From: a virus
Lineage: Duplodnaviria > Heunggongvirae > Uroviricota > Caudoviricetes
Virus record (IMG/VR): IMGVR_UViG_2713896789_000020
DNA: 16,256 bases
Strand: one strand, 5' to 3'
The number at the start of each line of letters is the position of its first letter. Positions within the stretch are counted from its first letter, which is position 1. The notes under the pieces are model-generated. The model saw nothing but the letters and a program-made list of their open reading frames with translations. It was not told where the DNA came from and searched no databases. Position numbers and translations under genes: made by a program. Of this stretch, positions 1 to 8,390 are shown piece after piece.

Positions 1-1284
1 TTACTTCTTCGCCTCTGCAACCACTTTACTACCCACGCCGCGGTTATTGTATTCCCACATGCGGTTGTAGTTAGTGTCATTCAGATTGCGCTGTATTTCG
101 TCGTTATCATCTACGCTGCCGGTATTACCCGCAAACGGACGATTAGAGATCACCGCATCGGCCCACGGTTTAGCCGTGTTAAAACCTTCGTTGATGGCGC
201 TATCACGGATCACCACCTGACCGTTGGTATTGGCATCAACATCCAGCGAGCGGCCCAGTTGCGCCACACCATCACCGAAAGCATTGAAACGGCTGTTTAC
301 GGCGAGGAAACCGTAGTAAATGTTGGACAGCGTAGCCGGTGCAAACACATACGCTTCTTGCTGAGTACGTGAGTTCACCACGCGGAATTCGGTGTTATCG
401 AACACCACTGCGCCGCGACCAGAAACGATATCCACATCCCCTTCAATGTAGCTGTTGGTCACCAGCGTACGCGGCTGACGATTTGTTTCCAGACGGTTCT
501 GCACACCGCTGTTGGTGACAAAGAAGGTGTTCTGACGACCGAGAATGTTAACGTTGTTAATCTGTACCTGGTCACCATCAGTACGCAGTGCCACCGCCGG
601 ATGGTTACCTGCATCTACGCTATCGCCCAGCGTGTTTTCGATGGTCAGATTTTGCAGTTGCAGGCCATTGTTTTGTGACCAGAAGACCGCAGAGCAGAGA
701 ACACCGATACTGTCGCTGCGTTTGCTCTGGCAGCTATCGTACATATACCACGCTGGTTTACCTGGCATATATTTGCCGCGCGGGTTGACGTCGTGACGCC
801 AGTCGGCAGGGCTCATGCCACCATCAAGGGAAAGCCCAATCTTCACATCAATCGGTTTTTCACCTGTACCGTACAGAGTAATTCCACCCGGAGCGGCAGG
901 GACATATACCGTTCCCTGATACTCACCAGGCATCACGGCAATATACTGGCGCTTGTTGGTACGCTTGATAATTGCCGCATCTACCGCCGCCTGAATCGTG
1001 GTATGCGTTACACCTTGAGTGCCCGCCGGGCCGACAACAAAGTCAGGTTGCGCAGGCAGGGTAATCGGGGAAGGATTCCACGCTGCAGCACCTGGTGTCA
1101 GGGATGCAAAATAGTGTTGAGCATCGAAATTCTGCGCTTCTTTTGCCGACAGAATCGGGCGAGAAGAGGTACCAGGCGCGGTTTGATCAGAAGGACGTTG
1201 ATCGGGCGGGGTTGAGCTACAGGCGGTCAGCGTCACGCCAAAAGCCAATGCCAGCGCCAGACGGGAAACTGAAAATGTGTTCAC
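1..1284 (-). CDS. ybhC: YbhC-like outer-membrane lipoprotein (pectinesterase / carbohydrate-esterase family); host gene flanking attB-lambda
   Basis: Complete 427-aa ORF with lipoprotein-type signal peptide (…LTACSS); recognised from the translation as the E. coli gene adjacent to the lambda attachment site; identity from recall, not searched. Confidence 0.85.
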   Translation of the reverse strand: MNTFSVSRLALALAFGVTLTACSSTPPDQRPSDQTAPGTSSRPILSAKEAQNFDAQHYFASLTPGAAAWNPSPITLPAQPDFVVGPAGTQGVTHTTIQAAVDAAIIKRTNKRQYIAVMPGEYQGTVYVPAAPGGITLYGTGEKPIDVKIGLSLDGGMSPADWRHDVNPRGKYMPGKPAWYMYDSCQSKRSDSIGVLCSAVFWSQNNGLQLQNLTIENTLGDSVDAGNHPAVALRTDGDQVQINNVNILGRQNTFFVTNSGVQNRLETNRQPRTLVTNSYIEGDVDIVSGRGAVVFDNTEFRVVNSRTQQEAYVFAPATLSNIYYGFLAVNSRFNAFGDGVAQLGRSLDVDANTNGQVVIRDSAINEGFNTAKPWADAVISNRPFAGNTGSVDDNDEIQRNLNDTNYNRMWEYNNRGVGSKVVAEAKK

Positions 1285-2892: not shown

Positions 2893-2974
2893 TTATCATC
2901 TCCATAAAACAAAACTCGCCGTAGCGAGTTCAGATATAATTTCCACCAAAGGCAGTAGTTGCTGATGCTAAGAA

Positions 2975-3403
2975 TTATTCAATATCTATTCCTGTAATAT
3001 CTTTTATCTTTTTCCTTGCAAAGCCTTTTGCTAGTGATTTTGAAACACTTATTAGTGTACTAATTCCCTCATCCTTAAAGTTTGTTTTTATAGTTTGCCA
3101 GACCTCCTTTTGACGCAAGTCAGCAATAAAATCATGCCCTCTTGCTGTCAACCTCAGTGGTACTTCGATCCAACTATATCCAACACCTTCCCCTAACTCG
3201 TTGGACATTATATGACCGAACCCAGGTTTTCCATCAACCCTGACTATTAATTCGTAGTCGCATAATAATCGCATATGGAAAATAAAATTTTGGTCATATC
3301 TATTAAAGCCATTATCCTCTAGTTCACTAAGCATCGTGTCAGGGCCATGAGTTTTTTCGAATGCGATAAGTAGATCTTTTAGATATTGCTGGTCTAATTT
3401 CAT
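2975..3403 (-). CDS. Hypothetical cytoplasmic protein, 142 aa, no recognisable family; AT-rich cargo gene
   Basis: Complete ORF with GGAGG Shine-Dalgarno 5 nt upstream of ATG (3403); strongly AT-rich codon usage unlike flanking lambda genes; no signal peptide or TM segment evident. Confidence 0.7.
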   Translation of the reverse strand: MKLDQQYLKDLLIAFEKTHGPDTMLSELEDNGFNRYDQNFIFHMRLLCDYELIVRVDGKPGFGHIMSNELGEGVGYSWIEVPLRLTARGHDFIADLRQKEVWQTIKTNFKDEGISTLISVSKSLAKGFARKKIKDITGIDIE

Positions 3404-3431
3404 TGCCGCCTCCGTGACATGTCACAGAGAT

Positions 3432-3770
3432 TTATATCATTAATTTTGTTTCGTGCCAGCCTTTGGTCACCCAGCATTGTGAGTCACCATTACACGGGCA
3501 TGAATTAACAGGAACTCTCTCGCCGCACTTACCGCAACGTTTTCTGCTGATCGATTTTATACGCCAGCGCACACGTGCATCATCCTGGCGGCTCAGTAAC
3601 GCGATGTACTCACCAAACTCGTAAGGCGCATGCCTGAAGCGGCGCGTGGCTCAGTTACGATCCAGCATTTCAATTTCCTGAGCATCAAGTACAAGCTCCA
3701 GCTTACGCATACCGGATGATGCTTGCTTGGCTCTCTGATCGACTTTGCGCTCTGCTGATGATTTAGCCAT
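3432..3770 (-). pseudogene. Cys-rich small protein ORF interrupted by a single in-frame TGA (at 3651-3653): 39 codons, TGA, then 72 codons ending …RKRCGKCGERVPVNSCPCNGDSQCWVTKGWHETKLMI; either a nonsense-mutated gene (TGG to TGA) or UGA readthrough
   Basis: Reverse complement translated codon by codon: MAKSSAERKVDQRAKQASSGMRKLELVLDAQEIEMLDRN-TGA-ATRRFRHAPYEFGEYIALLSRQDDARVRWRIKSISRKRCGKCGE…; the frame stays open across the TGA for 72 codons. Confidence 0.45.
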
Positions 3771-4063: not shown

Positions 4064-4678
4064 TTATCTAAAAGTCTTTCCACTTTTAACGTTTAGGTAT
4101 ATTCTGTTCGACAACGTCATTCCTCCGCAATATGTGAAATAGATGTTTTTCCCCTTATTGCTTGATGCCATCCACCCTCCGATTTCCTTAAAGTCGCTTT
4201 CCGTGCAGACCCCTTCGTTTATTAACTTCCTAGCTGCCGAAGAAAACTCTTTTTTGTATATACGGTAGTCATCAGATCCTTTGATTAAAGTATCATCTCC
4301 GCTCGCATTTTCAGCAGGATCTGATGGCCTTTCACTGCTAAGATCACTAAGTTTAACCCATTCTGAAAACTTGCCATTGACGATTCCGTTTTTTCTTGTG
4401 CAGGATTTATTACCTTCTTTAATATATTCGCTTTCCCCTCCCACACATGAGGCTGAATATGGCTCAGTTATACGAACCCATTCACCTTTTTTTTCTAGAA
4501 AATCTACGCCTTCCCTGAAAAATAGTTTCCCAGCCACTCCACATTTACTTGAAGGGCAGGTATGTCTTTCCGTTCGATCAACAACAACCCAAAGTCTTGA
4601 TTCATTTTTTGCCATTGCCGATGGTATTTGAGATGAGACAATTAACGTAAGCCCTAAAATTAGTATTGATTTTTTCAT
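4064..4678 (-). CDS. Secreted/periplasmic hypothetical protein, 204 aa, with Sec signal peptide, 6 cysteines, and a possible SH3b-like N-terminal domain; AT-rich moron-like gene
   Basis: N-terminus MKKSILILGLTLIVSSQIPSAMA- is a typical signal peptide; AAGGA Shine-Dalgarno 8 nt upstream; segment RLWVVVDRTERHTCPSSKCGVAGKLFFREGVDFLEKKGEWVRI resembles bacterial SH3 pattern (tentative). Confidence 0.75.
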   Translation of the reverse strand: MKKSILILGLTLIVSSQIPSAMAKNESRLWVVVDRTERHTCPSSKCGVAGKLFFREGVDFLEKKGEWVRITEPYSASCVGGESEYIKEGNKSCTRKNGIVNGKFSEWVKLSDLSSERPSDPAENASGDDTLIKGSDDYRIYKKEFSSAARKLINEGVCTESDFKEIGGWMASSNKGKNIYFTYCGGMTLSNRIYLNVKSGKTFR

Positions 4679-5228: not shown

Positions 5229-5382
5229 TTCGAACCTCTCTGTTTACTGATAAGTTCCAGATCCTCCTGGCAACTTGCACAAGTCCGACAACCCTGAACG
5301 GCCAGGCGTCTTCGTTCATCTATNNNNNNNNNNNNNNNNNNNNNNNNNNNNNNNNNNNNNNNNNNNNNNNNNNNNNNNNNNN
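5225..5382 (-). CDS. TraR/DksA-type C4 zinc-finger protein (lambda orf73-like); 5' part hidden by the N-run, so the start is undefined
   Basis: C-terminal readable portion …IDERRRLAVQGCRTCASCQEDLELISKQRGSK carries the second CxxC of a TraR-like zinc finger; upstream part masked by Ns at 5324-5382. Confidence 0.6.
5324..5382. other. Run of 59 N (masked or unresolved assembly gap)
   Basis: Literal n characters in the sequence. Confidence 1.
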
Positions 5383-6743: not shown

Positions 6744-6932
6744 GTCGATCCCGGTAACGCAGATCGGATGATTACCGGTTCGCTACCAGGGAAGAACGGG
6801 AAGGAAAGGTGAGCACGAATCTGATTTTCAAGGAGTGTCGCCAGAGTGCCGCGATGAAGCGGGTGTTGGCATTTTATCGCGGCAATTTTCAATAGACTAT
6901 GTACATAAAAATATCATTTTTTTAATACATGT

Positions 6933-7380: not shown

Positions 7381-7941
7381 ATGAAGAAGATAATATTATT
7401 AGCCATGATTATTGGTTCTTTAACAGGTTGCGCTAGTGTGCCACCATTGAATTTTTCAACACCTAACGTGGGAGTTAGCCAGAAAAAAATAGATGCTGAA
7501 ATTAAGTCATTAACGGTATCACTTGCTCGTCCAGATGAGCAGAAAGGGGATATCACTGCTGGTATGGAGGCTATAACTCCAATTTGGCGTGAATCTTTGC
7601 AGGAAGCACTCGACCGAATGACTATTTTTCGTGATAGTTCACCAAATACGGTTAGCTTAAATGTTAAAGTGTTGGCTCTTGACGTTCCTGCTTTTGGTGT
7701 TTCAATGACAACTAAAGCAATTGCAAGGTATGAAATAATCAACCGTGCGAATGGTGATATTATATATACGCAGGATATTGAGTCTACCGGTACTGTTCCA
7801 GCCAGTTACGCATTCTACGGTATTGTTCGAGCACGCGAATCTGTTAATCGCGCGGTGCAAAACAACATAACGCAGTTCTTGCAAGCATTAGAAAGTGTTG
7901 ATCTTTCTCGTCCAATGTTTCCTGTTAGGGTAGCTAAATGA
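7381..7941 (+). CDS. Lipoprotein of unknown function, 186 aa (lipobox LTGC)
   Basis: MKKIILLAMIIGSLTGCASV… signal peptide plus lipobox; AAGGT Shine-Dalgarno; stop overlaps the next gene start (ATGA at 7938-7941); AT-rich. Confidence 0.8.
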   Translation: MKKIILLAMIIGSLTGCASVPPLNFSTPNVGVSQKKIDAEIKSLTVSLARPDEQKGDITAGMEAITPIWRESLQEALDRMTIFRDSSPNTVSLNVKVLALDVPAFGVSMTTKAIARYEIINRANGDIIYTQDIESTGTVPASYAFYGIVRARESVNRAVQNNITQFLQALESVDLSRPMFPVRVAK

Positions 7942-8390
7942 AGCGATTATTCGTAATTGCTCCACTCTTAGTGTTGGTTGGATGCGCACAAAATATATCG
8001 CCAAATAGTTATTCTGTTGGCTCTGTGGGCATGGTTAATCGAACTATCGCTGGTACAGTTATTAGTGCTAGGGGGGTTGATATCAGTGGGACTTCCGCGT
8101 TAGGCGGGACTGCTGGGGCTGCCGTGGGGGCAACCGCTGGTTCTGCGCTTGGTGGGGGAGTTCGTTCTAATATCGTTGGTGCCGTTGGTGGTGCAGTCAT
8201 TGGTGGTATTGCCGGGGCAGCAATCGAATCTTCAGCAACAAAACAAACAGGCATGGAATATGTTGTCGAAACTGAGAATGGGAATTTAATGACCATTGTT
8301 CAAGGCAAAGATCCGTTATTTACTCAAGGAAGTAAGGTCCTTGTTTTATACGGAAACCCTTCTCGCATAATAACAGACCCGCGTCACTAA
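7938..8390 (+). CDS. SlyB-like outer-membrane lipoprotein with glycine-zipper domain, 150 aa (lipobox LVGC)
   Basis: Signal peptide plus lipobox, then Gly/Ala zipper region (GGTAGAAVGATAGSALGGGVRSNIVGAVGGAVIGGIAGAAI) and a C-terminal module resembling SlyB/Pcp (…MEYVVETENGNLMTIVQGKDPLFTQGSKVLVLYGNPSRI); from recall of SlyB. Confidence 0.85.
   Translation: MKRLFVIAPLLVLVGCAQNISPNSYSVGSVGMVNRTIAGTVISARGVDISGTSALGGTAGAAVGATAGSALGGGVRSNIVGAVGGAVIGGIAGAAIESSATKQTGMEYVVETENGNLMTIVQGKDPLFTQGSKVLVLYGNPSRIITDPRH

Follow-up and report, generated by a model that had tools for sequence, protein, structure and literature searches.

An intact DUF2513 gene encoding a predicted winged-helix protein in a defective lambdoid prophage of Escherichia coli

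A gene of 142 codons lies next to orf55 and xis in a defective lambdoid prophage of Escherichia coli, and its location raises the question of which protein it encodes and what that protein could do for phage or host. We analyzed it within a 16,256-nucleotide stretch of DNA (hereafter, the window; IMG/VR record IMGVR_UViG_2713896789_000020), and all evidence on the role of its product is computational. The window is a segment of the E. coli chromosome with 100% identity to NCTC9087 among other strains, and the prophage occupies the lambda attachment site beside ybhC. It is chimeric: a lambda-like arm from int to exo is joined at a ren remnant (junction near 6750-6900) to a DLP12-like right arm with ybcN, ninE, ybcO, rusA, ylcG, quuD, a porin gene, essD, rrrD, rzpD, bor, ybcV, ybcW, ylcI and nohD. 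The pL promoter, N, cI, cro, O and P are deleted. Beyond the pseudogene upstream of the 142-codon gene, the minus-strand order continues with a UmuD-like remnant, a gene for a 204-aa secreted-type protein, Ea22-like, TraR/DksA-like and DUF1382/DUF1317 genes, and exo. A search of the whole window against Rfam gave no RNA family.

Other features of the window were recorded alongside. The 204-aa protein (4064-4678, minus strand) is the product of another accessory gene, with 39% GC, and its N-terminus resembles that of a signal-peptide protein or lipoprotein. Its matches are PHROG 8310 (annotated function unknown) at E=2e-135 and, only weakly, SH3_3, and its gene is also found in phage Chlobot. 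Two adjoining lipoprotein-like genes on the plus strand (7381-8390), with products of 186 and 150 aa, lie between the ren remnant and ybcN; the 150-aa product is glycine-rich, and the RefSeq label of both is hypothetical. A run of 59 N at 5324-5382, inside the TraR/DksA-like gene, is read as masking and not as sequence, because the matching NCTC9087 stretch is 77 bp longer than the window.

Table 1 Features of the locus in the window and of the encoded protein; nucleotide positions unless residues are indicated.
Feature	Position	Strand	Basis or remark
int	1419-2489	minus	prophage gene order
xis	2467-2685	minus	prophage gene order
orf55	2725-2892	minus	prophage gene order
Terminator-like hairpin	2912-2931	minus	scan; 44 nt past the DUF2513 stop codon
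DUF2513 CDS, 142 aa	2975-3403	minus	ORF, Pfam PF10711, PHROG 585, RefSeq, AlphaFold2, selection
Shine-Dalgarno GGAGG	3409-3413	minus	sequence; GGAG/GGGG/AGGAG box kept here in homologous loci
Perfect 12-bp palindrome GTGACATGTCAC	3414-3425		between upstream pseudogene and Shine-Dalgarno; conserved across loci
Promoter-like stretch (putative): CTGGCA (3454-3459), 17-nt spacer, TG-n-TATAAA	3431-3459 (-10 at 3431-3436)	minus	inferred
Epsilon15 gp49/N15 gp46-like pseudogene (PHROG 536, 'transcriptional regulator')	3432-3770	minus	translation, PHROG, RefSeq
Helices H1, H2, H3	residues 5-16, 25-30, 38-49		AlphaFold2 model
Four-stranded wing	residues 53-85		AlphaFold2 model
C-terminal helices	residues 87-97, 99-108, 114-137		AlphaFold2 model; last one basic, amphipathic

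The gene occupies the far end of the early-left arm, the position of lambda ea8.5. Similarity to lambda, 434 and HK022, which covers 2400-2940 of the window, stops at about 2936-2940, just left of the gene, and GC drops to 36.1% in the gene from 45-50% in int, xis, orf55 and the upstream pseudogene. An earlier, sequence-only reading of this DNA had called it the first cargo gene next to orf55/xis, and the end of phage homology and the GC content bear this out. The terminator-like hairpin lies within the stretch shared with lambda, 434 and HK022 and belongs to the lambda-type backbone upstream of orf55.

The open reading frame is complete, running over 142 codons from an ATG to a TAA, and the GGAGG located 5 nt before the ATG agrees with the strong ribosome-binding site that had been claimed for it. 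The gap of 28 nt to the stop of the upstream frame at 3432 and the lack of a signal peptide or membrane segment (highest Kyte-Doolittle 19-residue mean of 0.76) were also found as described. The description of a mixed acidic and basic composition with a basic C-terminal tail held in part. Residues 113-142 are indeed basic (pI 9.8, compared with 5.15 for residues 1-112 and 5.8 for the whole protein), but what had been taken for a tail is an amphipathic helix of basic character, and the final eight residues are acidic.

Close homologues of the protein form 113 clusters in Enterobacterales at 46-99% identity, and a profile search with the family yielded 1510 representatives at 50% identity (E<=0.001), a span that takes in Proteobacteria, Bacteroidota, Nitrospirota and Verrucomicrobiota. 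Purifying selection on the gene is strong, with pN of 0.14-0.38 in homologue pairs whose synonymous sites are saturated (pS 0.75-0.98). Given the homologue clusters, the low pN against saturated pS and a confident AlphaFold2 model, the frame is a real, conserved gene, far beyond chance.

The sequence-only reading had assigned the protein to no known family, which the profile searches corrected. Pfam DUF2513 (PF10711) was matched with 42.9 bits against a gathering cut-off of 29.6, residues 2-115 covering profile positions 1-100 of 100, and PHROG 585 (annotated function unknown) was matched at E=2.3e-34 with residues 1-135 on profile positions 1-127 of 128. The identical RefSeq protein WP_000762730.1 was already annotated, under the name "DUF2513 domain-containing protein". 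DUF2513 was the only Pfam model above threshold, with no MarR or PadR model at E<=1; the NCBIfam search with the 142-aa protein gave no match, and no housekeeping or phage structural family was matched. Neither the protein nor its three neighbours matched any family in PADLOC-DB 2.0 at E<=1, and solved structures included no relative, whether searched by single sequence or by family profile. The literature search gave no paper on DUF2513, PF10711 or phrog_585, and nothing useful for YjcQ, PDC-S66 or the accession numbers. The gene is thus an ordinary, already catalogued member of the uncharacterised DUF2513 family, and this finding mainly corrects an annotation guess.

The AlphaFold2 model (42 homologues; pLDDT 94.1, pTM 0.84) has a canonical winged helix-turn-helix fold of the PadR/MarR type with three further helices. 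As the Pfam and NCBIfam searches found no catalytic domain in the 142-aa protein, it is presumed to act by binding. The winged helix would bind nucleic acid, or possibly a nucleotide-like ligand or a protein, and the C-terminal helices may provide self-association or partner contact. The structures that match the model best are MarR, PadR, HxlR and DtxR repressors, several of which were determined in complex with operator DNA, and a PadR/MarR winged helix is typical above all of ordinary transcription factors. The main rival of a role in phage conflict, the reading we favor below, is such a factor: a PadR/MarR-like dimer that sits on an operator and represses or activates phage or host genes, possibly including its own promoter. 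The layout of the protein, like that of small PadR proteins, and the mostly stand-alone occurrence of the family also argue for it.

The chemistry of the family points elsewhere. Among 75 diverse members the median pI is 5.4 for the whole protein, 5.0 for the winged-helix core and 9.4 for the last helix, and a pI above 8 occurs in only 4%; a core that is acidic throughout the family counts against an ordinary transcription factor. In the same 75 members R84 is invariant, Y7, L12, H43, G63, T86 and G89 are nearly so, and D49 and H90 are strongly conserved. The conserved polar residues (Y7, H43, D49, R84, T86 and H90) are family-wide and not member-specific, and, together with the acidic core, they favor a common ligand over diversified operator recognition.

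The DNA just upstream of the gene holds a promoter-like stretch and the perfect palindrome, both of which would suit a transcription factor acting on its own promoter. The palindrome GTGACATGTCAC is preserved between loci with protein identities of only 54-77% and with differing flanking intergenic bases; it is invariant despite saturated synonymous sites, and about 0.07 copies would be expected by chance in the 1.2 Mb examined. Whatever gene comes next, its place is at the gp49-like stop codon, which it often overlaps, or immediately behind it. This was seen in phages of E. coli, Salmonella, Klebsiella, Pectobacterium, Cronobacter and Citrobacter, and further copies were found at L140, L141, L142, L024:2242, L123:143, L126:3917 and L013:8600. 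In epsilon15, Klebsiella phage ST11-OXA245phi3.2, Pectobacterium ZF40 and the Citrobacter locus L024 no DUF2513 gene follows it, and DUF2513 genes without the gp49-like neighbor lack it, so an autoregulatory operator of DUF2513 was rejected. Because it is present where no DUF2513 comes after, the palindrome is best read as a feature of the gp49-like neighbor or of the module junction, and it may be a putative operator of the gp49-like protein or a junction marker. The sole upstream palindrome that could be considered as a MarR/PadR-type operator therefore goes with the neighbor. With this, with no Pfam MarR/PadR match and no conserved regulated target adjoining the gene, and with a gene that is rare and mobile between slots, unlike a core phage regulator, we consider an ordinary transcription factor unlikely, albeit the strongest of the competing explanations.

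A different conserved stretch was seen upstream of another DUF2513 lineage, that of Klebsiella phage ST846-OXA48phi9.2 and relatives (L019, L026, L031, L129 and L132). About 35-70 nt upstream of their DUF2513 genes there is an inverted repeat, GGCATTCAC-TGAGTGCC, and then an extended -10-like sequence, TGTGATAAT.

The final codons of the gp49-like gene, together with its stop, form the promoter-like stretch. Whenever a gp49-like stop is located 5' of the palindrome, the final sense codon and the stop read xTA-TAR, which creates a TATAA or TATAG box; the xTA codon is rare, TAA or TAG follows, and about 16 distinct junction types were read by eye. These junctions suggest selection for a TATAA box. 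The consensus promoter scan reported no minus-strand promoter, missing 3431-3459 as its -10 hexamer must have T as the sixth base. To judge from its sequence, the putative promoter could alone drive DUF2513, and because pL and the immunity region are deleted, expression of the gene in this prophage would rest on it.

The same deletions bring up the explanation that the gene is a silent passenger, a frame that has stayed intact in an element undergoing decay and that would currently do nothing for the cell. The prophage has lost pL, N, cI, cro, O and P, the neighbors (gp49-like, UmuD-like remnant and Ea22-like) are pseudogenes, and the consensus scan was empty on the minus strand. Against this stand the strong purifying selection across the family, a frame that is intact in all E. 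coli copies examined while adjacent genes decay, the TG-n-TATAAA kept upstream, and the occurrence of the same module in the isolated phage Chlobot. We regard a silent passenger as improbable.

The sequence-only reading had further suggested co-transcription with a Cys-rich ORF just upstream, which raises the possibility of a functional pair, as in a two-gene toxin-antitoxin or abortive-infection system. A separate 46-aa Cys-rich ORF at 3432-3572 was rejected: it is really the C-terminal fragment of a gp49-like gene of 113 codons, in which Cys41 has changed to a stop (3651-3653; RefSeq remark 'internal stop'). The fragment covers positions 69-114 of 115 in PHROG 536, which the intact Cronobacter copy matches at E=3.5e-49. 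The nonsense mutation is common to 18 related prophage loci, and intact alleles exist in other E. coli prophages, such as L067 and L075-L080. Likening the Cys-rich neighbor to ORF114 of phage 434 was also dropped, as ORF114 is unrelated. The intact gp49-like protein has a Cys-rich C-terminus, and its N-terminal stretch may be ribbon-helix-helix-like by eye.

In favor of a pair, about 45 diverse viral loci include roughly 20 in which a gp49-like gene or remnant precedes DUF2513, and these fall at three different genome positions; the junction is short (28 nt) and carries the conserved palindrome. The partners do not behave as one, however: besides the nonsense codon here and in the related loci, the gp49-like neighbor is intact, truncated, a remnant or replaced in different loci, whereas DUF2513 is intact in all of them. 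Rather than both being intact and always together, each gene is found alone, with gp49-like genes widespread without DUF2513 and many DUF2513 members without that neighbor, and neither protein has a PADLOC match. A toxin-antitoxin or abortive-infection pair of this kind is highly improbable.

To describe the spread of the gene, we used the stretch 2900-3700 (801 bp), which comprises the DUF2513 gene and most of the upstream pseudogene. At least 80% of it is present in 142 of 5,426 complete E. coli genomes. Only three of 50,697 deposited phage genomes have the gene, among them Escherichia phage Chlobot, which shows the same int-xis-orf55-DUF2513 arrangement at 97.8% identity. In IMG/VR viral contigs, 158 stretches encode a DUF2513 relative (the query of the locus search was the closer alignment, A1). 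In temperate phages of Cronobacter, Serratia, Yersinia, Enterobacter and Klebsiella, DUF2513 always runs in the early-gene direction, in slots before ninB, before terminase, between lysis and terminase, or before an exonuclease gene and int. Beyond Enterobacterales, the gene usually stands by itself and encodes about 135 aa, on chromosomes or small islands in Alpha-, Beta- and Gammaproteobacteria as well as in other phyla, with many copies among housekeeping genes.

No conserved partner gene emerged, as the adjacent genes are mutually unrelated in both chromosomal and phage loci. In a census of 89 neighbors against Pfam, PHROG and PADLOC, the only families that recurred were those of phage terminase, lysis and ninB genes. 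The best PADLOC matches of ten tight neighbors had E=0.007-0.01, with no matched stretch passing alone, and most had no defence annotation. Some chromosomal copies lie at most two genes from PADLOC matches to defence or candidate families (PD-Lambda-3_B, PD-Lambda-5_B, PDC-S09 and Aga_HEPN), and methyltransferase models were also matched by genes near some of the chromosomal copies. An R-x4-H (HEPN-like) motif was noticed by eye in two partners, a Vibrio protein of 225 aa and a Bradyrhizobium protein of 327 aa, and is a lead only.

To find links with effector domains, we inspected longer members of the family, in which the DUF2513 module is N-terminal. Among the best 150 of the 1510 representatives, 115 are 120-160 aa long and 10 have at least 180 aa. 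The fusions among these 150 include two with TIR domains, one of CAP12/Pycsar type (PF10137, E=8e-21) and one with TIR_2 (PF13676, E=3e-19) that is also ThsB-like in PADLOC (PDC-S66 at 2e-57). One further fusion is to DUF4062/PDC-S60 (2e-28), and an AbiTi/PDC-M14B-like C-terminal domain, hydrophobic at its end, is common to three relatives and to a further, truncated one. Fusions are rare offshoots, more than 90% of family members being stand-alone proteins of about 135 aa. A profile search from the fused relatives agreed, with almost all of the matches listed (best 120) stand-alone, from which we take the fusions to be a small minority. All fused DUF2513 proteins found are from metagenomes, and none was found in Enterobacterales, where the 113 close homologues are all stand-alone or truncated.

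A gene for a 305-aa protein lies 19 nt upstream of DUF2513 in Serratia prophages (L007:5064-5981); the protein has a weak TIR match (PADLOC E=1e-4) and also matches PHROG 3634 and 10872. A similar 307-aa gene takes the same position in one metagenomic phage contig (L128). The TIR-like gene of 305-307 aa and DUF2513 form a candidate two-gene module.

Our preferred reading, held tentatively, is that the protein is an effector-less binding or sensor-regulator module of phage-host or phage-phage conflict. In the fused relatives, where the TIR, DUF4062/PDC-S60 and AbiT-like parts would kill the cell or degrade NAD, DUF2513 would be the sensing or regulatory part. Since the same module is joined to effectors in relatives, the stand-alone phage form may modulate (repress, sequester or sense) rather than kill. 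An accessory function in conflict is favored over a core regulator because of the rarity, AT-richness and slot mobility of the gene, its lack of a conserved target and the effector fusions. The regulatory or abortive-infection role guessed in the sequence-only reading would fit the predicted winged-helix fold and the TIR- and AbiT-like fused relatives. Against a module of conflict, the fusions are rare, PADLOC gives no match, no partner is conserved and many copies sit among housekeeping genes, in addition to a fold that is typical of transcription factors.

A more specific variant is an anti-defence decoy or sponge, in which an effector-less copy of the sensor, made early by the phage, soaks up a signal or poisons the assembly of a host DUF2513-effector protein. 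Comparable cases are antitoxin mimics and phage-encoded sponges, among them Tad1/Tad2 and Acb2. The joining of the same module to TIR, DUF4062 and AbiT-like effectors in relatives, the constant placement of the gene with early operons, near exo, ninB and Ea22-like genes, and the acidic protein with its family-wide conserved polar cluster are consistent with a decoy. They are offset by the missing fusions among the close homologues in Enterobacterales, the fusions found being from metagenomes, by stand-alone copies that are also common in chromosomes outside prophages, and by a ligand pocket that is putative; we consider a decoy doubtful. There is similarly a small chance that the stand-alone phage proteins in general are early decoys or sponges against suicide effectors, or else a trans-acting sensor for a prophage-encoded exclusion system. 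If either held, DUF2513 would constitute a family of phage immune modulators that is both new and widespread and whose scaffold is an acidic winged helix bearing the family-wide conserved polar cluster. More broadly, if the protein is a module of conflict, a family found by itself in phages and joined to TIR or AbiT-like effectors in bacteria would offer a way into a new sensor or anti-defence principle, for which Escherichia phage Chlobot and E. coli ATCC 8739 are ready experimental systems.

Compared with known systems, the window gene shares its slot with lambda ea8.5, next after orf55/xis and at the distal end of the pL operon; no homology was seen between the two, and the similarity to lambda ends at about 2940. 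Ea8.5 is a different kind of protein from the DUF2513 protein. Within DUF2513/PHROG 585, the window protein agrees with most members in length (about 135 aa) and in its stand-alone architecture, and no difference sets it apart. Some DUF2513 relatives also match YjcQ (PF09639), a Bacillus subtilis prophage-region protein (P0127, E=5.5e-6), which suggests a related family of likewise small proteins; the window protein itself, in contrast, has no YjcQ match at E<=1, and YjcQ is likewise uncharacterised. Unlike DUF2513-effector defence proteins, the window protein has no effector domain, adjacent effector gene or PADLOC match, and the retron Ec86 effector (7v9x_C) is a structural analogue of its model. 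PadR/MarR/HxlR regulators differ from it in that it has no sequence-profile match to them, its core is acidic, its wing carries an extra beta-hairpin (residues 64-78) and no cognate operator or regulated neighbor was identified for it. What it is predicted to have in common with these regulators is the winged helix-turn-helix fold, and with small PadR proteins the same layout, a winged helix followed by C-terminal helices.
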